Shown here one piece after another: positions 16,783 through 52,192 of a DNA stretch of 64,000 nt. Positions within the stretch are counted from its first letter, which is position 1; every line of letters begins with the position of its first letter. The stretch spans positions 32,001 to 96,000 of IMG/VR virus record IMGVR_UViG_3300005288_000001. One strand, 5' to 3'. This stretch comes from a virus. Both the position numbers and the translations under genes were made by a program. The notes under the pieces are model-generated. The model was not told where the DNA came from. It worked only from the letters and a program-made list of their open reading frames with translations, and searched no databases.

Positions 16783-17618
16783 TTTGGCACCTTGTTTTCT
16801 ACGAGTTGGCGGTATTGCAACCAGCCGATAAAGTTCTTCGACTGATACTCAGGGTCCTTAAGGGACATTGCCGAGTGTTCAGTGGGCGAAGCGTGAATAG
16901 GAACTGAACCGACGAGGCGCTCATACAACTCAAGATCCTTATCGACGCTTGGATGTTCACCGTCATGGGTCAGGTACGATACTCGGGCGCAGCGGGCAGT
17001 GCTCAGCTTAACGAGCAGATCAGTACCAACAGTTGCTCGTTCCTGATCGGAAACATAGGGCAGATGCCAGCAAGCCTGGTTCTGGAAGTCATATTCACCG
17101 TCCGGACGCAGCACAGGAGTGGATTCACCCATGGCGGTTTGCATCTGAACAGCAAGTTCCTGGAACTCAGGTTGAGCGTCAGGGTGCGCGCGAAGCATGA
17201 AGAAGTTTGCCCACTCAGTCGAAGTGACGAGGGTACGCATCCATTGGAACGGCTCGAGGATACGGTTGGCGACCTGCTTATGAGCGCCCAACTTATTCAT
17301 CTGTTCAGCAATCTTAGCTGCAGCTTCGGCAGCGTTTTGCCATTCGAGTTGAACAGCCAACAGGTTATCGCCTTCCAACTGTGTATTCGCTTGCATGCCA
17401 GGTTGGTTCTTACCCCAATGGATAGGTGTCGCTGGATTCGTGCGTACCTGTTCAATCATCTTTGCTACGGGAATAGCACGTGACGACATTGCATTACGAC
17501 TGAATAGTCGGTGAGTCATAACCTCACCATGAATGAATCGCTGATACTGTAACTCGAACGTGACAATTCGCTTGCCGCGTGGAGTAATAGAATCAGCTAC
17601 GATTTTTGCATAAATCAT
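16779..17618 (-). CDS. thyX: FAD-dependent thymidylate synthase (phage type)
   Basis: E.MTHR.FSRNAMSSRAIP, HKQVANR.LEPF, LRAHPDAQPE, HASPTEH. Confidence 0.9.
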   Translation of the reverse strand: MIYAKIVADSITPRGKRIVTFELQYQRFIHGEVMTHRLFSRNAMSSRAIPVAKMIEQVRTNPATPIHWGKNQPGMQANTQLEGDNLLAVQLEWQNAAEAAAKIAEQMNKLGAHKQVANRILEPFQWMRTLVTSTEWANFFMLRAHPDAQPEFQELAVQMQTAMGESTPVLRPDGEYDFQNQACWHLPYVSDQERATVGTDLLVKLSTARCARVSYLTHDGEHPSVDKDLELYERLVGSVPIHASPTEHSAMSLKDPEYQSKNFIGWLQYRQLVENKVPK

Positions 17619-26608: not shown

Positions 26609-27151
26609 TCATAGAATCTCCCTAATCATATTGATAATCTTGTACATGTCTGTCGGGTTCTCGTTCGGGACTTCAGTGATGTAGTCCATGTAATCGAAGT
26701 TGGACAGGATGTTGTCGATCTTCGATGCACGGCCAGCCAGGAACGTTTCATTCTGGTCGCTACCACGGTCAGCGTATCGCTTCTCGAGAATATCTTTGGC
26801 AGGCTTCTTTAGAACGATGAAGGTCACTTCGGTTTCCGGAAGAGCCAGCAGAGCATCATAAAACTTCTGCCCGGTGAGCCTATCGCCTTCATACAGCACG
26901 TTAGAACTATGCGACTGAAGCCATTTTGTTACTTCAGGTTGACATGCCATTGAGAGCTTGTCCGTACCAGCAAACACTTCGCCGTCTTCATACTTGCCGA
27001 GGATGTGAAGGTCGAGTTCCTTACAATACATTGTCTCAACCAACTTCGCGGGAGACTGTCGTTCCCAGTCGTAGCTGTCCATGAAGTTGCGCATAAGGGT
27101 GGTCTTACCCGTGCCGGGCACACCAGCAATAGCAATGATTTGTCGTGTCAT
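26609..27151 (-). CDS. P-loop kinase (candidate 5-hydroxymethylpyrimidine-DNA kinase)
   Basis: GVPGTGKTT, GTDKLSM, YEGDRL, RY..RGSDQ. Confidence 0.75.
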   Translation of the reverse strand: MTRQIIAIAGVPGTGKTTLMRNFMDSYDWERQSPAKLVETMYCKELDLHILGKYEDGEVFAGTDKLSMACQPEVTKWLQSHSSNVLYEGDRLTGQKFYDALLALPETEVTFIVLKKPAKDILEKRYADRGSDQNETFLAGRASKIDNILSNFDYMDYITEVPNENPTDMYKIINMIREIL

Positions 27152-27501
27152 TAGAAAAGAGATTTTTGGATATTACAAGGTGGAAGCATTGGATTCATCC
27201 AAGAGATATAGTCCGGCGGACCTTCAATCTTCTTGAGTGACGAGCAGTCCTTCCAAACTGCGTCATAGATAGTGTCGCCAAGTTCAAACGATTGGGTCAG
27301 AACATGGGTTTTCTTGTTGTACTTTGCTTTGGTATTGTGGTGTCTATTGATGAATTCCCAAATGTCGCTGAACATAGGGTCGTCGAAATCGACATGTCGT
27401 CGCCAGACTCCTTTGTAGAATTTGTACAGAAACTCATATTCTGCAGTGTTCAGACGAGGATCGTCAGGATCATTGGCGAGTTGATTGATTTGGCTGGACA
27501 T
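27151..27501 (-). CDS. Hypothetical protein
   Basis: ORF coupled to the kinase gene. Confidence 0.55.
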   Translation of the reverse strand: MSSQINQLANDPDDPRLNTAEYEFLYKFYKGVWRRHVDFDDPMFSDIWEFINRHHNTKAKYNKKTHVLTQSFELGDTIYDAVWKDCSSLKKIEGPPDYISWMNPMLPPCNIQKSLF

Positions 27502-27544
27502 AGTTCACCTTTAAGCAGCGATCCCACGATTGGGATCACATTAC

Positions 27545-27952
27545 TTATTCGTCGAACATATGCTCAATAGTCGCTATGGCCGCTTCTTTATAGAAGTCTT
27601 TCCGGACGTAGTTGTAGATATAGACCGGCTTGCCCGACTTCTGGGATAGCTTGATCGTATTCTTGGTGCCCGCGCTTTCGCCGTCCCAGAAGGCAACGAT
27701 GATGTCGCTGTTCTGGACGATGGTACGGTTTCTCATCATACCAGCGCTCTTACCATACTGGTCCCACTCAGGACGGAACACAATCATGGGGATACCGTTG
27801 TCGTGGGCGTAGCATTCACCCAGAGTGTCGGCACCATTAGCTCCACCAGAAATGATGGCTTCAACGACAAGACCTTCAGTGACGATAGCCATGTAAGCCT
27901 TAACAGCTTCATAGTCGTCAAAGGTACGAGTCCCCACGATTGCGATTTTCAT
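27545..27952 (-). CDS. SLOG/YspA-like (DUF2493) protein
   Basis: IVGTR.F.DY, SGGANGAD, AGMMRN, FWDGESAGT. Confidence 0.85.
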   Translation of the reverse strand: MKIAIVGTRTFDDYEAVKAYMAIVTEGLVVEAIISGGANGADTLGECYAHDNGIPMIVFRPEWDQYGKSAGMMRNRTIVQNSDIIVAFWDGESAGTKNTIKLSQKSGKPVYIYNYVRKDFYKEAAIATIEHMFDE

Positions 27953-28209
27953 GTTCTTCCGTATATTTGGGTTTGGGTTTCGAGATACGAGATTCGGTTA
28001 CTTTGGGCCCGAACCAGTTTCTCAAGTTCGCGAACCCTTATGGCCAAATCCATTATGACCATCGTGTCGGGAACTTTACTCCCGCCAGTACGAATCATTT
28101 CCTCAGCGCGTTCCATGTTGCCTTCGCACATGACGAGGCACATTTTACACTGCATCAGCGGAGCATCGGTTTTGTCACGAAGCTCCTGGACCATAATCGC
28201 AGTGATCAT
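27949..28209 (-). CDS. EF-Ts N-terminal (UBA-like) domain protein
   Basis: ITAIMVQELRDKTDAPLMQCKMCL..CEGNMERA matches the EF-Ts N-domain pattern. Confidence 0.7.
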   Translation of the reverse strand: MITAIMVQELRDKTDAPLMQCKMCLVMCEGNMERAEEMIRTGGSKVPDTMVIMDLAIRVRELEKLVRAQSNRISYLETQTQIYGRT

Positions 28210-28940
28210 TTCCCGATCAACCTTCCGAACGCGAGATCATGGTGGGCCTCCATCTTGGCCAGGGCGGCTTCGCCAGCCATACGCTGAAGGGTTTCGCGAT
28301 GGAACACTTCGTCCGGGAGAATGATCTTCAGGGCGTAGCGGACATCAACGTCAGTATCAGGGTGGTCCAGGATAATTTCGAATCGCTCAGCGGCCAGCGA
28401 CTCACCGAAGTGGTTAACCGCTGCGTACGTCTTCAAATCATCGTACTGTTGATTCATGTAAGTCCAGTAGGAACTACACGTTTCAATCGTTGGTTCGACC
28501 AGTTCGATTCCACGATAATTCATCAGACCAGTAAGGATGTTTGAGTGTTTCATCTCATCCTCCGCAATGTTCATCAAAATCTTGGCCGAACGTTCGTCGT
28601 ATCCGATACCACTTTTGAGGAAGTCAACGTGGTCAGTATAGCCGCCGATTTCAGTAATCTGCAGCTTCTGCATCCACTTAACGAAGCGAGCGGAGTCCTT
28701 GCAAACCGCCGACCACCACGTCTTCGTGAATTCTATTTCGTCCTTATTCACTGCCAGCCTTGGCGTGGAAGTCGTTGAGACGATCCAGGGTTTTCTGGGC
28801 CATTTCCAAGGTCTTGCTGCGATGGACACATTGGCAATCCCAGAAAACACAATGCTTGTCACTGACTGGAATGATGAAGTTGCGGGTGCCTTTTTCAAGG
28901 GCAATTGCTTCCAGATCGATCTGGGCGATAATGGTGTCAA
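28206..28940 (-). CDS. Ferritin-like di-iron protein (true start probably near 28720)
   Basis: E...EDEMKH...E..AAE...DEVFH four-helix di-iron pattern. Confidence 0.7.
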   Translation of the reverse strand: MTPLSPRSIWKQLPLKKAPATSSFQSVTSIVFSGIANVSIAARPWKWPRKPWIVSTTSTPRLAVNKDEIEFTKTWWSAVCKDSARFVKWMQKLQITEIGGYTDHVDFLKSGIGYDERSAKILMNIAEDEMKHSNILTGLMNYRGIELVEPTIETCSSYWTYMNQQYDDLKTYAAVNHFGESLAAERFEIILDHPDTDVDVRYALKIILPDEVFHRETLQRMAGEAALAKMEAHHDLAFGRLIGK

Positions 28941-28985
28941 TACCGTGTGTCATAAGTCTATGTCAATATCAAAGTCAAGATTGAG

Positions 28986-29555
28986 TCAGTCGAAACTGCT
29001 CGACGAAGAGCTACTGTCCGACGAGGAATAGCTGTCGCTGGAACTGTAGCTTGAGGAACTCGAATAGCTCGGAGCTGGCGCACTGTACGTTGGTTCGTAC
29101 GAAGGTGCCGGAGCAGGCGATGGCGAATACGTTGGCGGGTCGATCGTTCGATCCTCGGTCTTCACCTCAACGTGAGGAGCCGGCGCTGGCGTAATTGGCA
29201 TCTTCGGAACCGAGTGGGTGCTCAGAACAGATTGCATCAGGAGCGCATCAGCAACCGCGTCAGAAGCGTCGCTAGTAGTGCTACGGGTGCTATCGAAAGA
29301 AGCCTTTGGTGGGGCTGTACGGGCCTTGGCTGAGGGTTGGTAGCCGTCGGTCGGGCGGCGTGGCGGATAGCTTGGCGTCAGGACTTCACGGCGAGCTTCG
29401 CGCGATTCCCACTTCTTCACGGCCTTGGGGCCACCGTTCTTGAAGACTTCGGCACGCTTCTTTTGTTGCGCGATGTACGCATCGCCAATCGAAGGTGGAC
29501 GCAGGTCCGCTTCAGCGGGCTTCGACTTGAAAAGGTTCTTGAGCCAGTTAATCAT
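28986..29555 (-). CDS. Hypothetical protein with Pro/Ser-rich tail
   Basis: MINWLKNLF start; poly-Ser C-terminus. Confidence 0.65.
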   Translation of the reverse strand: MINWLKNLFKSKPAEADLRPPSIGDAYIAQQKKRAEVFKNGGPKAVKKWESREARREVLTPSYPPRRPTDGYQPSAKARTAPPKASFDSTRSTTSDASDAVADALLMQSVLSTHSVPKMPITPAPAPHVEVKTEDRTIDPPTYSPSPAPAPSYEPTYSAPAPSYSSSSSYSSSDSYSSSDSSSSSSSFD

Positions 29556-29702
29556 AATTCCTCAGAGATGTTTCGATTTCGTGTTCAAAGATCATGTACA
29601 TACCACGCCCTTCAGGGAACTGTACCTTCAGTTCTTCTTTGCTAAACGTGTTAGCATCGAATACTCCTACAATACAATCCCAACCAAGGTCAAGACCAGT
29701 AA

Positions 29703-30122
29703 CTACAAAGACTTTTTGTGCCATACGTTTTCTGGACTGTGCCAGACATTTTCCTTATTGGTTATATCGTGGACAAGACGCACGACCGTGGTCGGAGTCA
29801 AACCCTTCAATGCCTCTTCGATAATCTTAGCCTGAACCTCGTCATCCTCGAAGTGCACGTTGATAGTATAACCGCTACGATAGAGCATTAGCAGCGTACG
29901 AGCCTTATGTGCTCCCGAGGTTTCACGGGACTTGTGTTCGAAACGGCACGTGTTGAAGAAGATTTGGTTGTGAATACCGGCCGCATCGAGTTGACGACGG
30001 GTGGCAGTAAACTCCTCAACCGAACGACCAGTGATGATCACATCCTTCGGACCTGGATAAACACCAATCAATCCTTCTTCAAGAACGATGACGCCGTCGA
30101 TGTCAAAACTATTCATTCTCAA
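29703..30122 (-). CDS. Small capless HAD phosphatase
   Basis: FDIDGV, ITGRS, K, FEDD. Confidence 0.8.
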   Translation of the reverse strand: MRMNSFDIDGVIVLEEGLIGVYPGPKDVIITGRSVEEFTATRRQLDAAGIHNQIFFNTCRFEHKSRETSGAHKARTLLMLYRSGYTINVHFEDDEVQAKIIEEALKGLTPTTVVRLVHDITNKENVWHSPENVWHKKSL

Positions 30123-30398
30123 ACTCCTTCTTCAGTTGTTCGTATTGTTTGCGGCGGTATGCCTTCTGTTCGCTTTCCAGACCATACAGGCGATCGACTT
30201 CAGACTTGGTCATTGGTCGCTCCCATTGCAGGCGAATGGCGGGATAACCCTTGCCATCTTCTTCGAGCCACATATGCAGACTCGCTTCGTATTCTTCGGG
30301 AACCTTGGCTCCGATCATTTCACCGATGTACTTCAGGAAGTTATCGGGACGCATGGCGCCGGGGATACGAATCCAATCACCTTGTTGGATAGTGTTTG

Positions 30399-30644
30399 TC
30401 ATTGTGCTCTGCACTCCATAGGAATATTCTTGGTTAAACGGATTGATTGTCGATAGGAAACTGTCGCGCAAGAGTCAACTACCTCGTCCCAATCGTTGTA
30501 TTTGGTGGCCTGAGGACCCACTGGGAGACCCTTCATGCAAGCATTGAACAGTTCTGCTCTAATGCATTGATTCGGAGAATTGTCTGGCGGACCCTCGCAA
30601 CCAACGAGAAAAGCAGCGGTAAGAATAATCAAAAGTTTCTTCAT
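30399..30644 (-). CDS. Putative lipoprotein
   Basis: MKK signal peptide plus LVGC lipobox. Confidence 0.65.
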   Translation of the reverse strand: MKKLLIILTAAFLVGCEGPPDNSPNQCIRAELFNACMKGLPVGPQATKYNDWDEVVDSCATVSYRQSIRLTKNIPMECRAQ

Positions 30645-30647
30645 AGT

Positions 30648-30668
30648 AAAAAGCCACCCGAAGGTGGC
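30648..30668 (-). terminator. Rho-independent terminator after ino1
   Basis: GCCACC-TTCG-GGTGGC-TTTTT. Confidence 0.85.
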
Positions 30669-30675
30669 GTAGAGT

Positions 30676-31971
30676 TTATTCGTAGTCGTTCTTAACGTCT
30701 TGGAAGGTGTACTTCAGATCAGCGGCCTTCGGAGCGTTTTCCTTCAGCTGTGCCTTGGTCAGATCAGTCAGGACTCGGCGGGACAGAGCATCGCATTCCC
30801 ACTTGGCGTCTTCGGTTTTCATCTGAAGAGGCGGGGTCTTTTGGGTCCAGGCTGAAGCTCCGCGGATAAAGCCCACGATACCCATCTCCGAGGCAACTTT
30901 GCAGAAACGAATCGCGCTGACCACGACCGAGCCGCTGTTAGGCGAATCTTGGACTGACAGACGGGCCGACATTTCGTAACGTGCACCACCGAACCCATAG
31001 GCAACAATATCAAAATTGGCGATCTTGTTATCCGACCCGACATACTGACCACCCGGTTTTTGTTGGACCGTGAGAGACGGTCCAGCGTAAAGGGTAGTGC
31101 CCGCGACGCTTTCGCCTCGGACCGTGCTTTGGCCTTTGAGAACATTTTCTTTGCTGATGTGCTTCGAGTGGAGACGTTCCTGCTTGGCCATATTCAGGAA
31201 GTCAGTATTGGCAGTACGACCGGTTCGGATATGTTCCTGACCTTGGGTCGAACCAGCGGCCATGTTCATTTGAATATGCTGGGTAACGTACAGGCCACTG
31301 TCCATCATCGCTCCTTGCAGAACTTCGGACATACGGCTGGCACCCCAACCCGAACGCATATCGGAACCGATGATTGTCAGACCCTTATCGATGAACTTCT
31401 GTTCAACTTCGCGGGCCTTCTCGATACCAATCATGGTGGGGATGCAATTCACGAAGTGGCAACCAGCGTTCAGGGCAGCTTGAACGTAGAACTCGGTAGC
31501 TTCTTCGGAACCGACTGGCAGGTAGTTGATGACGACGTCGACGCGAGCTTGCTTCAGCAGATGCGTTGCAGCTTCCAGATCGATGTGTTGCGGCAAGGTA
31601 TCCGGACGAACACGGAAAGAAACTTCACCAGGATAGTCCAGCATGTGGGGAGCCACGCCGTCAAGAACAGGGCCTGGCCATACCTTAGCACCAGGTTCGA
31701 TACAGAGTTCGTTAACGTATCCCACATGATCCATAGCACAGTTCGGAGCAGCTCGAATAGCTTCACGAAGTGGCTTGTTAATCTTGCGGGAATCAACGTC
31801 AAACCCAATCACGAACTCGATGTCGTTGACGGTGTATCCGCCGATGTCTTCATACATCAGACCGACTTTGTCTTGGGGATTTTCGATGTAGTATTGGATG
31901 CCTTCTACGAGAGACTTCGCACAGTTACCAACACCAACGATTGCTACGCGGATGCGTTCTTTATTTGACAT
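30676..31971 (-). CDS. ino1: myo-Inositol-1-phosphate synthase
   Basis: IVGVGNCAKSL, YLPVGSEEA, FVNCIP, NTDFLNM..RL.SK.ISK, DNK, DSPNS. Confidence 0.93.
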   Translation of the reverse strand: MSNKERIRVAIVGVGNCAKSLVEGIQYYIENPQDKVGLMYEDIGGYTVNDIEFVIGFDVDSRKINKPLREAIRAAPNCAMDHVGYVNELCIEPGAKVWPGPVLDGVAPHMLDYPGEVSFRVRPDTLPQHIDLEAATHLLKQARVDVVINYLPVGSEEATEFYVQAALNAGCHFVNCIPTMIGIEKAREVEQKFIDKGLTIIGSDMRSGWGASRMSEVLQGAMMDSGLYVTQHIQMNMAAGSTQGQEHIRTGRTANTDFLNMAKQERLHSKHISKENVLKGQSTVRGESVAGTTLYAGPSLTVQQKPGGQYVGSDNKIANFDIVAYGFGGARYEMSARLSVQDSPNSGSVVVSAIRFCKVASEMGIVGFIRGASAWTQKTPPLQMKTEDAKWECDALSRRVLTDLTKAQLKENAPKAADLKYTFQDVKNDYE

Positions 31972-32328
31972 GATTTCCTTTTTCATATGTCAGTTGTTTC
32001 CCAGTTTTGGTGAGACTGGAGGCAGAAGTTCTTGACGGAGGGGACCGTGTAGCTGCCTTACTAACTCAATTATACGCCGGAGTTACCCGGCGCACAAGTT
32101 TATTTAGGGAAATTTTACTTTGGTCTAGCTAACCAATCAACTAAAACAGTCAAACCACCAGGGCGCCAAGTAAGAGAAATTTCTTTGAGACCCTTCTCTA
32201 CCAGTCGGCAGGTCAGCATATAATCGAAAACGTGTTTGGCTTCGTTATATGCAGCCTCGGTGTAATATCCACTGACGTCTTCAAAACTGCCAAGCAAGAC
32301 ACCATCTCTGGTGACGTACTTGACTGTA

Positions 32329-33462
32329 TTAGAAGAAGTCTTCGAGGCTACCGCCTTTGCCGTACTTTTCGATTTTGTCTTTGATGATCGACTCATATTT
32401 TCCTTCAGGATCAAATAACCACTCCGGGTTAATCCCCAGCACTTCATACATGTTTGGCATGTCTTTGTACTGCTCATGCATATTGATTGGACTACCCGTT
32501 GCTTCGAACAATTTCATCAGGGCTTTTGACTCTCGCTTCCACTGAATAGTTGGATATATTTTATCATTGACCGTGTCCCGAAAGCCGTCGAAATTGATTT
32601 CAGGCCACTTTGCTTTGAATTCCAAGTAGCGGTTAACGGCATCGCCCGTATTCTGACCAGGATAATCTCGCCCGACGAAGAGCTTTTTACACTGACAGAG
32701 GTGGGTTTCGAGAGTGAAGTATGATAGATAATGATCGCTAATTCTATCGCGTGCCTTGGCCATGAGCTCTTTCTCCCACTTTGCAGCGCGCTCGCGGTCT
32801 TGCGGAGTTGGTTTGTGATTCGCGTAATGCTCGCCGACGGTGTACTGTTCTGCATTGTTGAGGAAGTGAAGACCGTTCCACACCGAAGTGTTGGCGGGAT
32901 CGTTGATGAACATTGTGTCGGGACGAATTGGCAGATCGCAAGTTTCCGCAAGAGCTTGGCTAAACAACCAACCAGTCATACGCCCAAACTTATGGAGCTT
33001 CTGAATCTCTTCGTTTACGTTGTGGTAAGATTGAGTTTCGGAATCGACCAAGCACGACTCAAACGCATCTTTAATTGACCCTTTACCTCTACGATCCACA
33101 AATTCCTGTAAGGATTGGACCATCTTGACGATATGTCCTTTGTTATATCGAGTGTCCGTAGCGAACTTTTGTCTGGGCATGGTTTCACGATTCCATTCAT
33201 CCAGAAGCTTGAAGTCCAGTTTGTCATAATCGGGGAAGGTTTGGTAGAAAATCCAAGCCATAGAACTCTGATACGTCATACCGAACAGGTAAGCGAACCA
33301 AAACTTCTGGTCTTCAGTCATAGGAGCGCCAGTAACACTGTGCGCTGTATCACGGTAGCCATTATTCCACAAATAATGATCAATGCCACCTCCCTTCAAC
33401 CGCCAGTCCAGCCAGCGGAAGAAGAGTTCATCACGGTTTTCGTTTAATCGCCAGTCTTTCAA
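32329..33462 (-). CDS. aGPT-Pplase / amino acid:DNA transferase-like enzyme (HhH glycosylase fold)
   Basis: W..YL.G.TY, TD.RY.K, FGRM..W, LETHLCQCKK; C-terminal SLEDFF. Confidence 0.8.
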   Translation of the reverse strand: MKDWRLNENRDELFFRWLDWRLKGGGIDHYLWNNGYRDTAHSVTGAPMTEDQKFWFAYLFGMTYQSSMAWIFYQTFPDYDKLDFKLLDEWNRETMPRQKFATDTRYNKGHIVKMVQSLQEFVDRRGKGSIKDAFESCLVDSETQSYHNVNEEIQKLHKFGRMTGWLFSQALAETCDLPIRPDTMFINDPANTSVWNGLHFLNNAEQYTVGEHYANHKPTPQDRERAAKWEKELMAKARDRISDHYLSYFTLETHLCQCKKLFVGRDYPGQNTGDAVNRYLEFKAKWPEINFDGFRDTVNDKIYPTIQWKRESKALMKLFEATGSPINMHEQYKDMPNMYEVLGINPEWLFDPEGKYESIIKDKIEKYGKGGSLEDFF

Positions 33463-34340
33463 AAGAAGTCCTCAAGAGTATTCGCACTGTCATCCGGTTT
33501 ATCCTGCATAAACCCAGACCAGCGGAGCTCTTTACTTAGGGGAAATTGCTTACGGAGCTCACGGATGTTTTTCAGGCGCAAGCTGTAGAAGTTCATTGAT
33601 TCGATAAAGACGGGATCTTGTTGGTAATAATCGCGAACGTAGGGCTCCTGCAAAGCTCGATAACAAGCATCCTTAGTTGCAGTTGCTCGTTCGTCGGTTC
33701 CTCGATCTCCTGAAGATTGCATACCTCCTCGGTTAGTGCCAACAGCTGTTGTGGCAACAAGCCAGTTGATAGAACCAACTCCGCCGTGGTTATGAAGAGC
33801 TCGAGCAGTTCTGATGTTATCGTCTTCATGGGACTGTTCTGTTCTAAGGGCTGACTTGTCATTGACGGCTCCCCACCAGGCGCCACCGATTTTGCGGAGC
33901 TTGAATTCAGCAAAGGGTTTCCCTTGCTTGAACATGAGATTTGGGGTGAAATCAAATCCAAAAGGCGTGGATCCAAAACATCCAAACGCGTATCCAAAAA
34001 GTCTTCCCAGAGCGACTTCATTGTCACGGCTGTCCTTATCCATAATGTCTTTGTACATCTTCACGGCAGAAATGTCATCGTCCATGAAGATAATCTTTTC
34101 CCCATCTGGGAAGTAATCGATCAGACCGTTGGTGGCGTTGTGGCCACCCTTCGGTACGATGATCATATCCAGCATAGGAACAGCTGGCAACTCAGCCTTG
34201 TATAGAGGATACTCGTCCTTCGTAACAGCCAGCACAAGCTGACGACCAAGGTCCAAGTCTGTCTGAGCGCTCAGGGTGCTGAGTGTTTTCTTCCAGATGT
34301 CTTTATGACGGCCATATGACCGTACAGCGATCTTAATCAT
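33459..34340 (-). CDS. GT-A fold GREB1/TAGT-like glycosyltransferase
   Basis: IAVRSYGR, IFMDDDI, EDD..RT, GGMQ; C-terminal TLEDFF. Confidence 0.75.
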   Translation of the reverse strand: MIKIAVRSYGRHKDIWKKTLSTLSAQTDLDLGRQLVLAVTKDEYPLYKAELPAVPMLDMIIVPKGGHNATNGLIDYFPDGEKIIFMDDDISAVKMYKDIMDKDSRDNEVALGRLFGYAFGCFGSTPFGFDFTPNLMFKQGKPFAEFKLRKIGGAWWGAVNDKSALRTEQSHEDDNIRTARALHNHGGVGSINWLVATTAVGTNRGGMQSSGDRGTDERATATKDACYRALQEPYVRDYYQQDPVFIESMNFYSLRLKNIRELRKQFPLSKELRWSGFMQDKPDDSANTLEDFF

Positions 34341-34674
34341 TCGTGGTACACCCGCATTCCGGTAGACAAGGTTTGCTCAAGAGCCATACCTTCTGTCATC
34401 TTCTTCAGTGTCTCTTTGTCCTTAGCCATCAGGGCTTCTAAATCACCATTCTTTCTGCGGACCATGAAGAATATTTTCTTAATCATAGATTGTCCAATCT
34501 TTCACTTTTAGCTTCCTATCGCCAATCTGTTTATAGGTTCCGGCTTCGATACGATCCAGAGTTTCAACGATCTCTTTGGCCACCTTCGGGTTCCAACCAA
34601 TGCCAGGGATATGGCAGCTGCAAAAGGATCCATCGTGGCGGGGATCAAGTCTCTGGCAAATTCGGCAAGGCCCA

Positions 34675-34908
34675 TCAAACATGCTCATCTGGTATCTCCA
34701 TTAGTGGCATCCAATGCGTTGGATTTCGTTCAGGGTGGTCTGTGACATGGATTGTCACACCTGAAGATGTGACCCAGTTGGTGATAAAATATCCCGCCAT
34801 CCATGGACGCTTATCACCAGGCCACACCACGATACATTGTTGGCCCTGCTGTGGCTTTTCGTCCTCAAACTTGTACCACTTCATTGCTTCGTGTAGGAAT
34901 ATGTCCAA
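34675..34908 (-). CDS. DUF551-like protein
   Basis: W....KP ... PTHWMPL. Confidence 0.6.
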   Translation of the reverse strand: MDIFLHEAMKWYKFEDEKPQQGQQCIVVWPGDKRPWMAGYFITNWVTSSGVTIHVTDHPERNPTHWMPLMEIPDEHV

Positions 34909-35074
34909 GTTCCCATTTTTGTTTGAGGATTGAACGTTGCTCGATAGACCATCGAGATGATGGGATTACCCACAGTCATGGAGACACCTTGTGTACCACA
35001 GAATTCCTCAGTGGGTTCTGGCAAGGCGCCAACATAGTCAGGTGTAAATCCCTTTCGGGAGATTGGAGTATGTA

Positions 35075-36409
35075 TCAAAAGAAATCCTCAAGTGATGCAC
35101 CCTTCTCGGCGTTCGGGTGGTGTTTCAGTAGTTCTTCCCGGCCCACGCGTTTCTCGCAATACTCAAACCACTCCTCCGAGTCCCACATACCTGGAGCGAT
35201 TCCGTTCCACTTGTAGCGTTGAAGCGGATGGCTAGGATCAAGGCGTCGACCCTCGACGAAATCTTCACGCGCTTTCTCATATTCGTAGCTGCCCAGCTCC
35301 AGCATGCCCTCTCGTAAGTAAACAACAAGACTTACTCTCTCGGAGTCTGGACTACCGAGAACAATTGGCGTGTTCCCATGAATAATGTCGTGGTTATTGA
35401 CGAGTAGTAGGTCCCCAGGCCGTACATTGACGGCCACTCGATACTCTGGGAATACGAGGTAGCCTCCGGTGTAATTTCCATCATTGGAGAGGACGAGGAG
35501 GTTAGACATACCTTCTGTATAATCGCCCGCGTCCCGATGGGCAGCCGTCCGAAACGTTGAGTTGACCGTAATCGTCGTGAATGGAGTACCCGGGATAACG
35601 AACGCTGGATCAATACTATCGGAAGCAGCTTTTTGGTTTGCGTATCGAGCCGGTAGCAAATCTCGGAACCCTTCGGCGAGACGCTGTAGAAATGGATATG
35701 CTTTGATGAAGTCTTCATAATGATCTCGTGTGTATCCAGTTGCACGGCCGAACGGGATGCGGGGATAGCGATCAAACCATCCAGCGATACCCGAACGAAC
35801 CTTGTTGCCATAGGTCGAAGTGGAGATGTAACCTGCTACTTCCTGAACTTTCTTATGGCGCTCAGGCTTCGCAAGAGGAATAAGGGAATCAACCCAACGC
35901 TCAAAATCGAAAGAAGGATCAAAACGAGCATAAACCCAAACAGTGTGCTTACCATTCCCGGTGACGACTTCTCGGCTTTCTTTCGTTGGGTAGCGCGCGC
36001 GAATTTTGTCAATTATTTCTTCCTCGACCAAAGCGGACGTAACCGAGTCTTCATCAATGGCTTCCAACATATCGTGTTGGTAATTTGTGACAAAGGCCCG
36101 AGCAACACGACCTTCTTCTGTTGTATGGCCTTCAAGGATCCCAGATGCCAGACCGCGATTTTCTGTTTCACGCGCCGCAGCACGTAAGCCTTCATATGCG
36201 GCTTGTTGGTCTTCCGTACGGAAATAATTTTTACGAAACTTGAACGCAATGCGTTTTTCGTCAAGGGGCGAACCCCCGACCGATTGGTCCGGTATGTAAC
36301 AGTCAGTGTCTTCATTGACTAGAATGTCGTAATGTGAATCGTCGATGAATCGGCCGATGGTGTTTTCGGCTTCTTCGTATCGTTGGGGAGCTACTAGAAT
36401 TTTTGTCAT
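35075..36409 (-). CDS. TET/JBP-family 2OG-Fe(II) dioxygenase (5-methylpyrimidine oxygenase)
   Basis: FTTITVN...AAHRDAGD (HxD), GGYLVFP, HGNT, RVSLVVYLRE; C-terminal SLEDFF. Confidence 0.85.
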   Translation of the reverse strand: MTKILVAPQRYEEAENTIGRFIDDSHYDILVNEDTDCYIPDQSVGGSPLDEKRIAFKFRKNYFRTEDQQAAYEGLRAAARETENRGLASGILEGHTTEEGRVARAFVTNYQHDMLEAIDEDSVTSALVEEEIIDKIRARYPTKESREVVTGNGKHTVWVYARFDPSFDFERWVDSLIPLAKPERHKKVQEVAGYISTSTYGNKVRSGIAGWFDRYPRIPFGRATGYTRDHYEDFIKAYPFLQRLAEGFRDLLPARYANQKAASDSIDPAFVIPGTPFTTITVNSTFRTAAHRDAGDYTEGMSNLLVLSNDGNYTGGYLVFPEYRVAVNVRPGDLLLVNNHDIIHGNTPIVLGSPDSERVSLVVYLREGMLELGSYEYEKAREDFVEGRRLDPSHPLQRYKWNGIAPGMWDSEEWFEYCEKRVGREELLKHHPNAEKGASLEDFF

Positions 36410-36427: not shown

Positions 36428-37834
36428 TTAAAAGTTGAAGTCAAAGCCACCGCGCTTCTCAGCCGACTGTCCCTTTCCGAAACTAGTCTTATCAAAGGCT
36501 GGACCGGTGTCCTTGCCGCCAGAGTCAGCCAAGTCATCTTGGGCATCGTCTTCGACATTATACAACTTCATTCGAGCTTTGTCAACACCAACAACGAATC
36601 GCTTATAATAGCTTGGATCGCCATATCGATTCTTCAATTGCTTAATCATTAGCTGGTTCAACTCATCTAGCTCTTCAGTACGTATTATAGCTAGATAAAG
36701 ATCAAGCGCGTGGACGAGGCCCATAGACTCCGACGTATCGGTCATGGAAATATCCGACGAACCAATACCACCACGATTAACCTGGGTCGCCGTCAGGATA
36801 GGAACATTGTATTCCACAGCCAGACCACGGACTTCTTCGGCAATCGCCTTAACCGTCGTGTAGCTATTCGCGTTGGCGTTCGCACGGATACGCTGCGAGG
36901 CACAGATGTTCAGGTAATCGATAACGATCAAGTCTGGAACGAAACCACGCTTCTGCTTCAGATCCTCGATAAGAGCACGGAAGTGTCCAGCATGAGCACC
37001 GGAGGTTGGATACTCCTTGACGATTAGCTTACCAGTCGTACGGGAGGTAATCTTTCCCATACGCGAGTTGAACGTTCCCTGATCGATGTTTCTAAGTTGC
37101 TTGATCGGAGTATTGAACAGGTTCGCATCAATACGTTCCGCATAGCTGAACTCGGACATTTCCATCGAGATGATCAGGACGTTCTTACCCTGCATCAAAG
37201 TCGCTGCGGCGATGTGAGACATAACCAAAGACTTACCACCACCGGTTTCGGCGGCCAAACAGGTCAGGGTCTTGTTTCGTAAGCCGATACCATCCGTGAT
37301 CTTGTTGAGCAGATCAATGTCGAACTTGATACCAGTTTCTTGGGAGTGATAGTGTGCAAAACGATCGTCTGCATTCTCGAAGTAATCGTGACCAATGTTC
37401 GTGTCAAACGAAACGGCCAGGGCTTCTTGAAGCAGGGTTGGAATAGATTCTTGGGTACGCTTCTTGTCAACACCTTCCACAATCGCAATGGAATTGTAGA
37501 TAGCATTGTATACCGCCTTGGCCTTACAGAACTTCTCAGTTTCGTCTAGGAGCCATTGCTCGTTAACAGTTTCTGCCGCGAGCCCGTCAATAATTTCCGT
37601 CGTTGTTTTAATGTCCGCTTCCGTCAAATCCTTACGATTTGCAATAGCGATATTCAGCACCTCATGTGTACATGCCTTGGAGTACTTCTCAAAGAACTCC
37701 ACTGCGGATTCAATAAGCACTCGCTCATGACGATTCTCAAAGTATTCTGGCTTTAAGAAAGGTACAACCTTTCGGGTGTACTTTTCGTCATAGAGCAAGT
37801 GGGAAAGGATAGACTGCTCAATGCGTGCTGTCAA
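36428..37834 (-). CDS. 41: Replicative helicase (gp41)
   Basis: GHDY, GGGKS, SMEM, DYLNIC, TATQVNR, KNRY. Confidence 0.95.
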   Translation of the reverse strand: MTARIEQSILSHLLYDEKYTRKVVPFLKPEYFENRHERVLIESAVEFFEKYSKACTHEVLNIAIANRKDLTEADIKTTTEIIDGLAAETVNEQWLLDETEKFCKAKAVYNAIYNSIAIVEGVDKKRTQESIPTLLQEALAVSFDTNIGHDYFENADDRFAHYHSQETGIKFDIDLLNKITDGIGLRNKTLTCLAAETGGGKSLVMSHIAAATLMQGKNVLIISMEMSEFSYAERIDANLFNTPIKQLRNIDQGTFNSRMGKITSRTTGKLIVKEYPTSGAHAGHFRALIEDLKQKRGFVPDLIVIDYLNICASQRIRANANANSYTTVKAIAEEVRGLAVEYNVPILTATQVNRGGIGSSDISMTDTSESMGLVHALDLYLAIIRTEELDELNQLMIKQLKNRYGDPSYYKRFVVGVDKARMKLYNVEDDAQDDLADSGGKDTGPAFDKTSFGKGQSAEKRGGFDFNF

Positions 37835-38320: not shown

Positions 38321-39439
38321 TTATTCCACCTTTAGGTTAATTCCAATTGGTTCGTCTAGGTCGGAGTAGTCGTCATCCAGAAGTGAATCTGCAATGTCGT
38401 CATCCATATCGCTAGACATGATGTTACCGTTCGCTACTTGGTACTTCTGACGAATCCATTCCTTGAACGTTTCATCTGCCAGAATCTGATTCCAGAACAC
38501 CGAGTGATTCGTCTGCGCTTCACGCCAGTTCTTTTCCTCGATCTCACCAGTACCAGTGTTCACACGAGCGTACCAGCCGTTCTTTGGCTTGATAACGTGG
38601 CCGGATTCAAGTGCCATATCCAACAGACCGGACCACTTGTTAATCCCCTTCTCGTACATAACGTTGATAATGATCTTCGACTTTTCGCGAACGTAACGTG
38701 ACTTCTCAACATTAATCACGAAGTTCCAACCAACGATCTCAGTACCGTCCTTCTCTTGCTGACGACCGATAATGTAGATGTTATCTGCCGAGTAGTAAAT
38801 ACCCGTACCACCAGAAACGACTGCCTTCGAGTACATTTCCTGGGTTTGGTATGTATGGTTAACAACGTCCATCTTGATGTCCTTCAACTTCAAGTGAGGA
38901 GTGACCATACGGAAGACCGACTTCAGCTGTTTAGCACGAGTCATGTCGCCAACCGACTTACTATCAAGAGCGTCGTCAACTTCCTTCTTGGATGCCAGGT
39001 TACCAATCGAGTCAACAGCGATGAATACCTTATCACCACGTTCGATACCGTCCAGCTGGTTCATGACGTCAAATTTGAATTCTTCGATGTTGGTAATCGG
39101 AACGTGTAGCACACGAGACATGTCGATGTTGTATGCCTGGAAGTATGCTTGGGGAGTACCAAACTCACTATCATAGAAGATACAGATTGAGTCCTTATAC
39201 TTGTCCAGATACGACTTGATCATCAGGAGAAGATAGGAGGTCTTGAAGTGCTTGGAAGGACCGGCCCAGATGGTCAGGCCAGGTTCAAATCCACCATCAA
39301 GGTCACCCGAAAGGGCAACGTTAATTGCGGGGACTTGGGTTGTGATCATGTCCTTCTTATGGAAGAACTTAGAAACAGCTAGAACAGCCGTATCCTTGAT
39401 CGTTGAGTTTTTCTGTAGTTTATCGAGTAGTTTGGACAT
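38321..39439 (-). CDS. uvsX: RecA-like recombinase
   Basis: GPSKHFKT, YDSEFG, DSIGNLASKKE, GGTGIYYSAD. Confidence 0.97.
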   Translation of the reverse strand: MSKLLDKLQKNSTIKDTAVLAVSKFFHKKDMITTQVPAINVALSGDLDGGFEPGLTIWAGPSKHFKTSYLLLMIKSYLDKYKDSICIFYDSEFGTPQAYFQAYNIDMSRVLHVPITNIEEFKFDVMNQLDGIERGDKVFIAVDSIGNLASKKEVDDALDSKSVGDMTRAKQLKSVFRMVTPHLKLKDIKMDVVNHTYQTQEMYSKAVVSGGTGIYYSADNIYIIGRQQEKDGTEIVGWNFVINVEKSRYVREKSKIIINVMYEKGINKWSGLLDMALESGHVIKPKNGWYARVNTGTGEIEEKNWREAQTNHSVFWNQILADETFKEWIRQKYQVANGNIMSSDMDDDIADSLLDDDYSDLDEPIGINLKVE

Positions 39440-39477: not shown

Positions 39478-42018
39478 TTAGCCGAAGAAATCTTCAAGCG
39501 ATGCAGTCTCCTCAGCCGCCCACCCAAGAGGACCAATAACGGCGTTCAACGGTGCCAGGAAGGCTTTATCAAACATCGTGTCGTAGTCAATGTGCTGGTC
39601 AATCTTGAACTCTGCAGGGATCTTACTGATGTACGAAATAACGTTTTCGTGAAACGCGTTGGGCATACGGAGGTACGTATATTTGACCTTGTCTCCTTCC
39701 TGGATCATCGGATATTTGGTGTCGATCTTAAGTCGCTTCGCATGATGGTTGAAGAGCAGGGCGCCACGAACTTGGATAGGTGTGCCGGAACGATAGACCG
39801 GACTACCGGACCACTTGGCCAATCCATTACAACCACGAGGGAATGCAATCTCATTCACGTCCAACTTCATAAATTCCTGACGCGTATTCGCCACCAGCTT
39901 CTGTACGGACTTTTCGTCACCATACAGAACTGTCTCAACGGCGGAACGCAACTGTGTACGAACCACTGCTGGAGTAGACGACTTAACCAGGGCCAGACCA
40001 CGCACCTTCAACTTCGGCTTCTCATAACGAACACCTTCAGAGTCCCACACGCTGAGCGCGTAGTTCTTCTTGGCAACGAAGACCGAAACGTCAGCAAGAA
40101 CTTCTCGCTTCATGGACATCGCTTGTTTATACGAGTTCATGTATTTCGCCAGGTCTTCATACGATTGCTTAATCAGCGGCTGGATGACCTGCTCACAGAC
40201 CTTATCCATGAAGTCAATCTGGGACTTCACATCCTTGCCCGGCATCGTCTTATCTACAAGAGCCTCAAGAGTCAGGTAGAACGCGTCCGTGTCAATCGTG
40301 ATAACGTAATCCTTATCCTTCGTACCAAGAATCTTGTTCATCTTCTCGTTCATACGGTTAGCCATCCAGCGAATTGCCAGCTGACCAGATAGGGTAATGC
40401 CTTCGGCGATACGGAGATCGTAATAGCGGAAGTAGTTGGAACCGATCGCACCATAAGCCGAGTTCAGCTGAATCTTACGAGCCAGCTGCAGATTGTTCAG
40501 GCGAGCAATTTCATTGAGCAGGCTTGAGTCCTTCGTCTTCTCATACTTATCCTCAAGCGCAAGCATTTCCTTCTTAAACTTCTTACGTTCAGCATACATC
40601 TTCTCCATCAGGAACGGCAAGAAGCCTTGCTTAGACCTGGTATAGCAGACGCCGTTGGCCGTCATCGTCGCGTTGTTATCGTAGAGCCATTGAAGGTCCG
40701 TATCCTGTTCCAGGAGCCCATCCACTGTCACGTTGAAACGCTTATCCTGGATCATTGTCTCAGGACTGATGTTTGCCCACATCATAATGTGTGGATACAG
40801 ACTGTCCAAGTCGAACGAGGCGACGTTACGGTGCTTACCGACAATCGGAGGCTTAACGTAAGCTCCTTCGAACTGGCCACCCTTGCTGGTATGGGTCTTG
40901 TTCGGGATAACGATCTTCAGGTCACGGAAGTGATTGTAAATCAGGACGTCCCAGACTCGAATCTGACCAGACACGTCTTCATAGTTAACCTTCGCGTCAT
41001 AGGCCACCGTCAGCGTCAGGTCTAGCAGCTTATGCTTCGCGTCAATACCACGGACAATTTCATTGTCGATAATATTGTATGCTACGAACTTGTCCCAGTT
41101 CCCTTCATAGAATGCTCGGAAGGTATCGAACTCATCGTGGTTCAGTTTCTTTCGCTTCAGTTCTACGTCACCGATGTGGTCCAGACGATAGTTCTCTTGC
41201 TTCGGAATCGATGTCGACTTCTTATAGATTTCGATGTAATCGATGGCAGAAATACCGGCGATGAAGTAATAGATGGTCGTGTCTTCCTCAACGACTACTC
41301 GCTTCTCACGGATGACACCCCATGGCGAAATTTGCTTTGCGAAGTCTTCTCCCATCACCTTAATCATCCGACGAATCATGTAGGGGACGTCGAAGGTATC
41401 GATGTTCCAACCAGTGATAACGTCTGGATAATTATTGGCCCAGAACTTCATGAACTCTTTGAAGAGCGAAATCTCATCGGCACAGATCGTCTTCTCAATG
41501 ACAGGAATATTCTCCGGGTCATGCTCAAAGTATTCCTTCTTGATGGTAAAGTCTTTGGCCGAGAAGACATGATAGCGTTTGTGGAGGCTATCATAGAAGG
41601 AGATAAGCAGCACTTCCTGGTCGGTGGTTTCCATGTTCGGGAAGCCGTTTTCAGCACGGGTCTCGATGTCCAGGAAGTAGGTCCGAATCATATTCATATC
41701 CGGAGAACGAATGCCAGGATATGTGTCGGCGATGTACTGATACTCATAGCTGGTCATTCCATAGACGTTGAATCCATGGACATCCTTGTACTGCTCAATG
41801 AAGTTTCTACAGTCTTTGATGCTACCAGGCTTTACTGGATAGACTGGTTTACCCTCAAGAGTCGTCCACTCTGAGGTCACGCCTGTTTTCTTGGCGTCCG
41901 TGAAAAGCGTTGGTTCGAACTTGACCTTGCGCATGAATCTTTCGCCATTCCGAAAGTATCCACGTTCTAAAATCTGATTCCCGTATTGGAAAACGTTAAG
42001 GTAATTGTCTTGGCTCAT
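39478..42018 (-). CDS. 43: Family B DNA polymerase (gp43)
   Basis: DIET, GWN...FD, SFDLDSLYP, KIQLNSAYG, DTD; C-terminal SLEDFFG. Confidence 0.98.
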   Translation of the reverse strand: MSQDNYLNVFQYGNQILERGYFRNGERFMRKVKFEPTLFTDAKKTGVTSEWTTLEGKPVYPVKPGSIKDCRNFIEQYKDVHGFNVYGMTSYEYQYIADTYPGIRSPDMNMIRTYFLDIETRAENGFPNMETTDQEVLLISFYDSLHKRYHVFSAKDFTIKKEYFEHDPENIPVIEKTICADEISLFKEFMKFWANNYPDVITGWNIDTFDVPYMIRRMIKVMGEDFAKQISPWGVIREKRVVVEEDTTIYYFIAGISAIDYIEIYKKSTSIPKQENYRLDHIGDVELKRKKLNHDEFDTFRAFYEGNWDKFVAYNIIDNEIVRGIDAKHKLLDLTLTVAYDAKVNYEDVSGQIRVWDVLIYNHFRDLKIVIPNKTHTSKGGQFEGAYVKPPIVGKHRNVASFDLDSLYPHIMMWANISPETMIQDKRFNVTVDGLLEQDTDLQWLYDNNATMTANGVCYTRSKQGFLPFLMEKMYAERKKFKKEMLALEDKYEKTKDSSLLNEIARLNNLQLARKIQLNSAYGAIGSNYFRYYDLRIAEGITLSGQLAIRWMANRMNEKMNKILGTKDKDYVITIDTDAFYLTLEALVDKTMPGKDVKSQIDFMDKVCEQVIQPLIKQSYEDLAKYMNSYKQAMSMKREVLADVSVFVAKKNYALSVWDSEGVRYEKPKLKVRGLALVKSSTPAVVRTQLRSAVETVLYGDEKSVQKLVANTRQEFMKLDVNEIAFPRGCNGLAKWSGSPVYRSGTPIQVRGALLFNHHAKRLKIDTKYPMIQEGDKVKYTYLRMPNAFHENVISYISKIPAEFKIDQHIDYDTMFDKAFLAPLNAVIGPLGWAAEETASLEDFFG

Positions 42019-51532: not shown

Positions 51533-52192
51533 TTACTCGAAAGTCGAGTCAGCTTCAATCGCGATGAAGTATTCCAGTTCGCCGTTGACAGCCTTGAAAC
51601 GGCTAATCTTCTTCGAGCTAATGGAAACGTCATACGAGCCAGCGACCAGCTTCAGGTTTTCCACCTTCAGGTTTACGCGGAACGTTCCGGTAGCAGCGCC
51701 AATCTCGATGACCGACTGGTTCGAGGTTGCGTTCTTCTTATCGGATACGACCACCGACAGCTTCGAGCCGTCACCGACAATAGCCAAGTCACCACCACGG
51801 AGAACCGCACTGGTACGTTGAATCATGGCCAGGTCTTCTTGCGAGAGCGTGAAGTTGACTTCTGCCGTCGGGAAGGTAATCTTCTTGGTTGGAGTAACCA
51901 GAACCGAGCTATCGGCAGCGAAGTACTTGATCGAGTTCGAGCCTTCTTGGATCAGAACAAACTTCTCGGTGAAGGACAGTTCCGGTTCGTTGAAGAGGCT
52001 CAGGGCGCCCAGGAATTCGCTCAGGTCATAGATACCGAACTCAGCGTCGAAGGTCTCGGTCACGACTGCGGAAGCCATGATGTTCTTCTGTGCGCTGATA
52101 GTTGCGATTTCGTTACCCGGCTTCAGCAAGAGATTGCTGTTGATGCTAGCGAAGTTCTTGAAGCGGGCGAGGGTGTCTTTGGATAGTTTCAT
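51533..52192 (-). CDS. 45: Sliding clamp (gp45)
   Basis: MKLSKDT..FKNFASIN, FGIYDLSEFL, YFIAIE. Confidence 0.95.
   Translation of the reverse strand: MKLSKDTLARFKNFASINSNLLLKPGNEIATISAQKNIMASAVVTETFDAEFGIYDLSEFLGALSLFNEPELSFTEKFVLIQEGSNSIKYFAADSSVLVTPTKKITFPTAEVNFTLSQEDLAMIQRTSAVLRGGDLAIVGDGSKLSVVVSDKKNATSNQSVIEIGAATGTFRVNLKVENLKLVAGSYDVSISSKKISRFKAVNGELEYFIAIEADSTFE

Follow-up and report, generated by a model that had tools for sequence, protein, structure and literature searches.

Our analysis of a 64,000-nucleotide stretch of viral DNA (the window; positions 32,001 to 96,000 of the IMG/VR virus record IMGVR_UViG_3300005288_000001) revealed a cluster of six genes that appears best explained, if still tentatively, as a module for the hypermodification of thymidine after replication, with a small-molecule donor that the phage makes itself. 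The cluster encodes a TET/JBP-family dioxygenase, a glycosyltransferase (GT), an AADT-type transferase, an inositol-phosphate synthase homologue (Ino1), a HAD phosphatase, and a P-loop kinase. The Ino1 and HAD genes are paired with DNA-modification genes in many unrelated phages, and this recurrent pairing points to a putative inositol-bearing DNA base. The virus record is the complete genome of a T4-like phage, 172,501 bp long and bounded by direct terminal repeats, and the six genes are co-oriented on its minus strand, directly 3' of the genes for the family B DNA polymerase (PolB), UvsX, and a DnaB-like helicase. An earlier reading made from the DNA letters alone (the sequence-only reading) had placed all six genes in this arrangement downstream of the helicase, which was borne out, with the Ino1 open reading frame (ORF) starting 15 nt upstream of the end first given for it. 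The identities assigned to the genes also held under Pfam profiles, motif comparisons, and AlphaFold2 (AF2) models. The genes, with the basis of each assignment, are:

35075..36409, minus strand: TET/JBP-family 5-methylpyrimidine dioxygenase, read as a probable ParB-independent thymine dioxygenase; ends in SLEDFF (Pfam Tet_JBP, residues, genome content)
33459..34340, minus strand: GT-A glycosyltransferase, TAGT-like, with an invariant DDD motif; ends in TLEDFF (motif and AF2 model)
32329..33462, minus strand: AADT, or aGPT-Pplase2-type group:DNA transferase, with invariant Glu252 and Cys256; ends in SLEDFF (Pfam ADDT)
30676..31986, minus strand: myo-inositol-3-phosphate synthase homologue (Ino1-like), NAD-dependent, no clamp tail (Pfam, TIGR03450, 1gr0)
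29703..30122, minus strand: small capless HAD phosphatase, the constant partner of Ino1 (motifs and AF2 model)
26609..27151, minus strand: P-loop kinase (Ploopntkinase3), candidate 5-hydroxymethyluracil (5hmU) DNA kinase (Pfam)

Enzymes of the cluster

The dioxygenase matches the Pfam family Tet_JBP (PF12851) with 83.7 bits against a cut-off of 34.9. Its residues H291, D293, and H344 (HxD...H) and R358 are invariant in 10 homologues, and on the basis of the fold we take the first three to be the Fe(II) triad and R358 to be the arginine that binds 2-oxoglutarate. In the complete genome we found no C5-methyltransferase (PF00145), no ThyA-like synthase or hydroxymethylase, and no ParB (PF02195), and both ThyX and a dCMP deaminase are present. 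The sequence-only reading had reported ThyX and the deaminase, and had seen no dUMP hydroxymethylase or C5-methylase in the window; the same now holds for the genome as a whole. As the phage makes dTMP through ThyX, thymine is the likely substrate base, and the combination of ThyX with no C5-methyltransferase, ThyA-like enzyme, or ParB fits a stand-alone thymine dioxygenase. The post-replicative conversion of thymine to 5hmU that had been suggested earlier is likewise supported by this gene content. Stand-alone, ParB-independent phage thymine dioxygenases were described in 2026 (PMC13229309), and the enzyme fits this subclass, with the oxidation of thymine in DNA as its predicted activity.

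The transferase scores 80.8 bits with the Pfam model ADDT (PF18724) against a cut-off of 26.2, meaning that the profile check suggested for aGPT-Pplase and Tet_JBP placed both proteins above curated cut-offs. Its best characterised match is gp247 of phage ViI (24% identity), which itself scores 197.6 bits on the ADDT model. E252 and C256 are invariant, gp247 included, and a Glu and a neighbouring Cys are essential in the ViI enzyme (PMC8989533). This protein is a serine:DNA transferase that forms an ether via the serine hydroxyl, and it was shown, together with M6 gp51, to expel phosphate from the DNA base and form a C5 exocyclic methylene, an intermediate that takes amines, a hydroxyl, putrescine, and even an added thiol (PMC8989533). 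Because the methylene accepts such diverse nucleophiles, the hydroxyl of a polyol would be a chemically reasonable substrate.

Of the 1565 stop-to-stop reading frames of at least 50 aa in the genome, only those of PolB, the dioxygenase, the GT, and the AADT end in (S/T)LEDFF(G). The C-terminal tail of the T4 and RB69 polymerases is a clamp-docking peptide, and by analogy we presume the same of the LEDFF tail. It is kept in homologues of the tailed enzymes, while it was never seen, here or in related loci, on Ino1, the HAD, the P-loop kinase, or the FkbM-type methyltransferase discussed below. This split is as expected if the dioxygenase, GT, and AADT act on new DNA and Ino1 and the HAD act on small molecules. 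For three copies of the sliding clamp with the AADT tail, complex prediction gave a weak ipSAE of 0.56, compared with 0.31 for the best control, and this value may reflect memory of solved clamp-peptide complexes. The partner had a pLDDT of at least 50, and the runs shared at least 55% of their contacts. Of 78 solved complexes only five passed with a value no higher than 0.60, as did all four of the mismatches that passed. In related loci the tail also occurs on PF18723-like, BGT-like, and C5-methyltransferase-like (C5-MT-like) proteins. In the class A loci defined below (L013, L021, L034, and others), these proteins end in a polymerase-like LE(E/D)F(F/M), and since they share such tails, clamp tethering of DNA-modifying enzymes seems to be general in this phage group.

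The GT matches the TAGT profile (PF20691) with 18.5 bits, and its homologue in the cultured Caulobacter phage Cr30 with 19.7 bits, both under the cut-off of 27.5. Its DDD motif (residues 87-89) is invariant in 19 homologues, however, and a Foldseek search with the AF2 model (pLDDT 90) recovered the GT-A enzymes AvpGT, TarP/TarS, and RmlT (E 1e-5 to 3e-4, TM 0.42-0.48), in a list that also holds sugar nucleotidyltransferases of the same fold. Motif and model together confirm the GT-A identity first given to the gene, and the suggested search with the TAGT profile stayed under its cut-off. Its membership in the module stands for the window but not in general, since the GT is optional: related loci have an FkbM-type methyltransferase instead, or nothing. 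The FkbM-family gene, which lacks a clamp tail, replaces the GT between the dioxygenase and AADT genes in L038 (8044-8775), L041 (816-1547), and their relatives, where its product might O-methylate a cyclitol before transfer. The locus L089 has a GT homologue at 31% identity and no Pfam-detectable Ino1, TET, or AADT.

Among the scanned ORFs of the 9.8-kb stretch that holds the cluster, no small-molecule enzymes besides Ino1 and the HAD were recognised. Ino1 matches Inos-1-P_synth (PF01658) with 37 bits against a cut-off of 27 and aligns along its full length with Mycobacterium tuberculosis Ino1 (1gr0) (residues 11-395, E 4e-53). The motifs N-x-D-F, SK..SK, DNK, DSPNS, and K-x-PP are invariant in four phage proteins aligned to 1gr0, and we take the Lys and Asp motifs to be the active site, with catalytic roles as in myo-inositol-phosphate synthases. 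The HAD protein, of 139 aa, had no Pfam match; its motifs I-IV (D7/D9, T31, K73, D93/D94) are invariant in 27 homologues, and its AF2 model has a pLDDT of 91. The P-loop kinase carries a Walker A motif and matches Ploopntkinase3 (PF18751) with 54.5 bits (cut-off 27), making it a candidate 5hmU DNA kinase.

Recurrence across phages and genomic setting

To place the pair in a broader context, we searched viral contigs with an Ino1 alignment, which returned at least 436 relatives, and took the best 80 (71-89% identity). The Ino1 and HAD genes are neighbours in about 80 of the 83 related viral loci. Gene clustering and Pfam scans of the neighbouring genes defined five classes of context:

Class A (the majority): DUF1599, thymidylate synthase-like (TS-like), dCMP deaminase, Ino1, HAD, PF18723-like, BGT-like, C5-MT-like
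Class B (the type seen in the window): TET, then GT, FkbM methyltransferase, or neither, then AADT, Ino1, HAD, P-loop kinase; includes phage Cr30 and the 177-kb contig L086
Class C: sugar epimerase, BGT-like, Ino1, HAD, PF18723-like
Class D (in a PolA/FEN-type phage): P-loop protein, TS-like, GT, AADT, PF18723, Ino1, HAD
Class E: FolE, DpdA-like, Ino1, HAD, QueC, QueE, as in Menderavirus phages (PMC9025141)

The set of TET, AADT, Ino1, HAD, and kinase genes recurs in Cr30, which has the GT as well, and in L005, L015, L038-L048, and L086. In L088/L090 it occurs at another genome site, between UvsW and topoisomerase, as a tight block in the order HAD, GT, AADT, Ino1, kinase, TET, with a non-orthologous HAD. 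The sequence-only reading had named a lack of linkage between ino1 and these genes in related phages as a finding that would count against it; when we looked, the linkage was present in all of the loci just listed. It also extends beyond T4-like replication machinery. Class D has the Ino1-HAD pair beside AADT, PF18723, and TS-like genes, and in Ralstonia phage RP13, whose replication machinery is again different, the pair lies beside AADT-like, PF18723, and HMUD2 genes. Conservation of T4-like synteny as the full explanation is weakened by class D, RP13, and the relocated block. A quick Ino1 tree intermixes the context classes and places class D among T4-like rows; its long branches (Cr30, L088, RP13) are unreliable.

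The Ino1 of RP13, the nearest cultured holder, is 60% identical to that of the window, and by tblastn we found the gene in no cultured phage of RP13's PolA-UDG group besides RP13. This phage is an SP-15-like member of that group, its DNA is heavily modified, and direct sequencing of it failed (PMC12686479, PMC13697223). One published account reports no detectable 5hmU DNA kinase in RP13 (PMC13697223). We observed that its ORF133 (L002 13291-14547) matches the Pfam family HMUD2 (5-hydroxymethyldeoxyuridine [5-hmdU] DNA kinase 2) with 51 bits and shares the P-loop GTSGxGKG with ViI gp243, and that ORF120 (L002 4927-5901) matches PF18723 with 162 bits. Among class E loci, the Ino1-HAD pair lies between FolE/DpdA-like and QueC/QueE genes in L003 (phage Mendera), L062, L035, L066, and L073. 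One idea is that a QueC-like ligase could join the carboxylate of 7-carboxy-7-deazaguanine to a cyclitol.

Around the cluster in the window are the following features:

39478..42018, minus strand: PolB, ends in SLEDFFG; source of the common tail (context)
38321-39439, minus strand: UvsX (flank)
36428-37834, minus strand: DnaB-like helicase (flank)
51533..52192, minus strand: sliding clamp (gp45-like), presumed dock for the LEDFF tails (context)
17115..17564, minus strand: ThyX match (context)
36557..36585, minus strand: sigma-70-like promoter TTGACA-17-TATAAT, 12/12 (consensus match only)
30653..30668, minus strand: terminator-like hairpin with T-run, directly after the Ino1 stop codon (consensus match only)

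About 150 nt separate the sigma-70 consensus, which falls inside the 3' end of the helicase gene, from the downstream start of the dioxygenase gene. Together with the terminator-like site, this consensus brackets TET, GT, AADT, and Ino1, which suggests that these four genes form a putative single transcription unit. The 9.8-kb stretch had no megablast match among cultured phages, and no PLP, radical-SAM, flavin, or acetyltransferase tailoring family was found among its scanned ORFs, with four ORFs of 58-81 aa lying outside the scan.

The ORFs of 244, 189, 120, 116, and 86 aa between the HAD and kinase genes fall outside the core and have counterparts in L005, the nearest relative, alone. The 244-aa protein (28206-28940, minus strand) gives a weak match to Rubrerythrin (E 0.006) and is placed in the ESM Atlas next to viral diiron proteins of the ferritin-like/MiaE-like kind (score 0.92); it might serve as an additional enzyme for oxidative tailoring. 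Also between the HAD and the kinase, outside the conserved core, is a SLOG-superfamily protein (27545-27952, minus strand; YAcAr, 56.6 bits; DprA-like). SLOG domains have ligands derived from nucleotides. Two proteins of the cluster had no family match: the 189-aa one just named (28986-29555, minus strand), with a long Ser-rich C-terminal tail, and one of 81 aa (30399-30644, minus strand) with a lipoprotein-like signal consisting of a hydrophobic run followed by Cys.

A possible pathway and its alternatives

In the pathway that we propose, ThyX would supply dTMP and the DNA would be made with thymine. The TET/JBP enzyme, docked on the sliding clamp through its LEDFF tail, would then oxidise thymine to 5hmU, and the P-loop kinase would phosphorylate the hydroxymethyl group. 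The Cys/Glu pair of the AADT would expel the phosphate to give the C5 exocyclic methylene, as in ViI gp247 and M6 gp51. Ino1 would convert glucose-6-phosphate to inositol phosphate, which the HAD would dephosphorylate to myo-inositol, and a hydroxyl of the latter would add to the methylene, yielding an ether-linked 5-(inosityl-oxymethyl)uracil. Alternatively, inositol phosphate might be added first and trimmed by the HAD afterwards. As an optional step, the clamp-tailed GT-A enzyme may add a hexose to the inositol adduct or to leftover 5hmU. Of this, the analysis itself shows who the genes are, their catalytic motifs, the tails, and the conserved linkage, whereas the substrate of the kinase, the nucleophile, and the order of the steps are what we infer.

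Several observations weigh against this scheme. Ino1 scores 218 bits over the full length of TIGR03450, well under the NCBIfam equivalog cut-off of 638. Compared with 1gr0, Cr30, and Mendera, it also has two segments inserted close to the active-site motifs, and it may therefore make a different cyclitol. The HAD model gave weak Foldseek matches (E 2e-3, TM ~0.55) to capless HADs, namely the T4 Pnkp 3'-phosphatase and lipin/Pah, which act on polymer or lipid substrates. The kinase has no clamp tail, and its similarity to the characterised 5hmU kinase ViI gp243 (PF18747) is confined to the P-loop (E 0.003). Most of the loci come from related T4-like phages, which means that counts of linkage are inflated by shared synteny. 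In class A, the TS-like gene is ~55% identical to T4 gp42, a dCMP hydroxymethylase, the PF18723-like protein has no P-loop, and there are no PF18747 or PF18751 kinases; we therefore rejected a 5hmU-type assignment for this class, which the TS-like gene and the family name of PF18723 (5-hmdU DNA kinase, helical domain) would have suggested, and the largest class is instead of the 5-hydroxymethylcytosine (5hmC) type, as its gp42-like gene indicates. The pair also sits within FolE/DpdA-like/QueC/QueE (7-deazaguanine) clusters. The complete genome of Mendera carries the pair and has no TET, TS-like, ADDT, PF18723, HMUD2, or Ploopntkinase3 gene, none of these six was found on the class E contig behind L062 (71% complete), and none of the four such families searched was found on the one behind L035 (37% complete). 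For Ploopntkinase3, ADDT, HMUD2, and Tet_JBP, no control genome scored above the cut-off, and these absence calls rest on positives at other loci. Since Mendera lacks these enzymes, the Ino1-HAD pair does not require 5hmU chemistry; judging from its neighbours, it is tied to DNA base-modification clusters generally and not to 5hmU specifically. Of the pathway drawn up in the sequence-only reading, the gene identities, the step from thymine to 5hmU, and the linkage of ino1 were retained, and the inositol adduct stays a prediction; the GT is optional in the module, and the Ino1-HAD pair is not specific to 5hmU chemistry.

These points bear on other explanations as well. One, which we regard as somewhat unlikely, is that the AADT attaches an amino acid or amine and the GT a sugar, giving a hypermodified thymine of the conventional kind, and that Ino1 and the HAD have no part in this. 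They would then be an auxiliary metabolic pair, placed by inheritance in the region of nucleotide metabolism and replication and serving envelope inositol, osmolyte use, control of carbon flux, or some other use. The occurrence of the pair in Mendera without any hydroxymethylpyrimidine enzymes, and beside three different base chemistries, would agree with this. So would the conservation of Ino1, which exceeds that of all other proteins nearby (71-76% identity, compared with ~38% for the polymerase), as for a housekeeping-type enzyme, and the fact that all characterised AADTs take amino acids or putrescine (PMC8989533). However, in every class the modification genes surround the pair instead of leaving it at their edge, it has moved with them into PolA-type phages and RP13, and it stays with them in the relocated L088/L090 block, where a non-orthologous HAD fills the phosphatase slot. 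An amino acid adduct also sits poorly with the scanned ORFs, which include no amino-acid tailoring enzymes.

A further explanation, less probable than an auxiliary pair, is that the product of Ino1 and the HAD reaches DNA without the AADT, for example as acceptor or building block of a glycosyl-inositol unit (on the model of the mycothiol pathway) handled by GT-A, GT-B-like, or PF18723-like transferases, or that another cyclitol is made. The second-best sequence match of Ino1 in the PDB, a five-membered-cyclitol-phosphate synthase (6k96, E 5e-27), speaks for this. So do the clamp tail of the window GT, the 5hmC-type loci, where the pair is flanked by clamp-tailed PF18723-like and BGT-like proteins with no AADT, and the tailless FkbM-type O-methyltransferase that takes the place of the GT at some loci. 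On the other hand, the AADT is the constant neighbour of Ino1 in TET-type loci and the GT is dispensable, and no nucleotidyltransferase that might activate inositol phosphate was seen in the cluster. We consider it very improbable that the dioxygenase acts on 5-methylcytosine and that the cluster hypermodifies cytosine. Phage TETs that oxidise 5-methylcytosine exist, according to work cited in PMC13229309, and relatives of the Ino1-HAD pair occur in 5hmC clusters, but the complete genome has no C5-methyltransferase, the AADT and P-loop kinase are enzymes of the thymidine pathway (PMC8989533), and a C5-MT accompanies only ~6% of 5mYOX pathways (PMC13229309).

The thymidine pathway may be set within a broader hypothesis, which we advance with slightly more reserve. 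Phages may ether-link a carbocyclic polyol, myo-inositol or a close cyclitol, to the C5-methylene of DNA pyrimidines, with Ino1-HAD as a portable donor cassette that would serve 5hmU (made by TET), 5hmC (made by gp42-like enzymes), and possibly a QueC-activated 7-deazaguanine carboxylate. If true, cyclitols on DNA would add a new chemical class to the natural base modifications, one that routine mass spectrometry would miss because its mass is the same as that of a hexose adduct. Such bases would probably resist glycosidases and sugar-recognising modification-dependent nucleases. The substrate range of AADTs would widen from amino acids and amines to polyols, which would be useful for enzymatic DNA labelling, and the presence of a very conserved inositol synthase on hundreds of environmental phage contigs would be explained. 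The question can be put to a direct test in two cultured phages, Cr30 of Caulobacter and RP13 of Ralstonia.

Comparison with known systems

Base J is made in kinetoplastids by JBP1/2 and the glucosyltransferase JGT, a member of the TAGT family. The cluster resembles this system in pairing a TET/JBP thymine dioxygenase with a TAGT-like GT-A enzyme, and the inositol ether of 5-hmdU, calculated at 420.4 Da (258.2 + 180.2 - 18.0, with a further 162 if hexosylated), would equal the nucleoside of base J in mass. In contrast to base J, the TAGT match in the window is under the cut-off, the GT is optional, and the kinase, AADT, Ino1, and HAD have no counterpart. Another parallel is the start of the mycothiol pathway, which consists of Ino1, MshA (a GT-B enzyme), and a phosphatase; the TIGR03450 model is itself named mycothiol_INO1. 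An inositol-3-phosphate synthase, a glycosyltransferase, and a phosphatase form a unit in both cases, and the M. tuberculosis Ino1 is the best solved relative of the window protein. The GT of the window, however, is a clamp-tailed GT-A enzyme, and equivalents of MshB/C/D are lacking. As the GT-A enzyme carries a clamp tail, it most likely acts on DNA.

Linker-phosphate-oligosaccharide thymidines are known from SP-15, YerA41, and Carin-5 (PMC12686479, PMC13697223). RP13, which holds Ino1, belongs to the same polymerase group as these phages; they differ from the phage studied here in being PolA-UDG phages in which 5-hmdU is made before replication.

The closest precedents are metavirome contigs that combine TET_JBP, 5-HMUDK, and aGPT-Pplase2, which were noted in 2021 (PMC8989533), and the phage thymine dioxygenases described since (PMC13229309). 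There too, 5mYOX makes 5hmU post-replicatively for an adjoining kinase and AADT, with no C5-MT nearby. Because both papers describe such combinations, the TET, kinase, and AADT part of the cluster is a known kind of pathway, and the novelty that had been claimed for the whole applies to the inositol link, as neither paper mentions an inositol-phosphate synthase or HAD partner in these contigs. Our literature search found no paper linking inositol synthesis to DNA modification and none on an inositol-modified base, in agreement with the sequence-only reading, which had known of no such base.

In the Salmonella phage ViI, the pathway to 5-NeOmdU uses the 5-hmdU DNA kinases gp67/gp243, the serine:DNA transferase gp247, and a PLP decarboxylase (PMC8989533). 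The cluster likewise combines a kinase with a PF18724 AADT that has the essential Glu and Cys, and gp247 links its substrate through oxygen, as we propose here. The two differ in the origin of 5hmU, which would be made by TET/JBP on DNA in our phage and comes from a dUMP hydroxymethylase in ViI, and in the family of the kinase (PF18751 in the window, PF18747 in ViI). Instead of a PLP decarboxylase, the window has the inositol synthase, the HAD, and the GT-A enzyme in the tailoring slots, and, unlike ViI, it has enzymes with putative clamp-docking tails.

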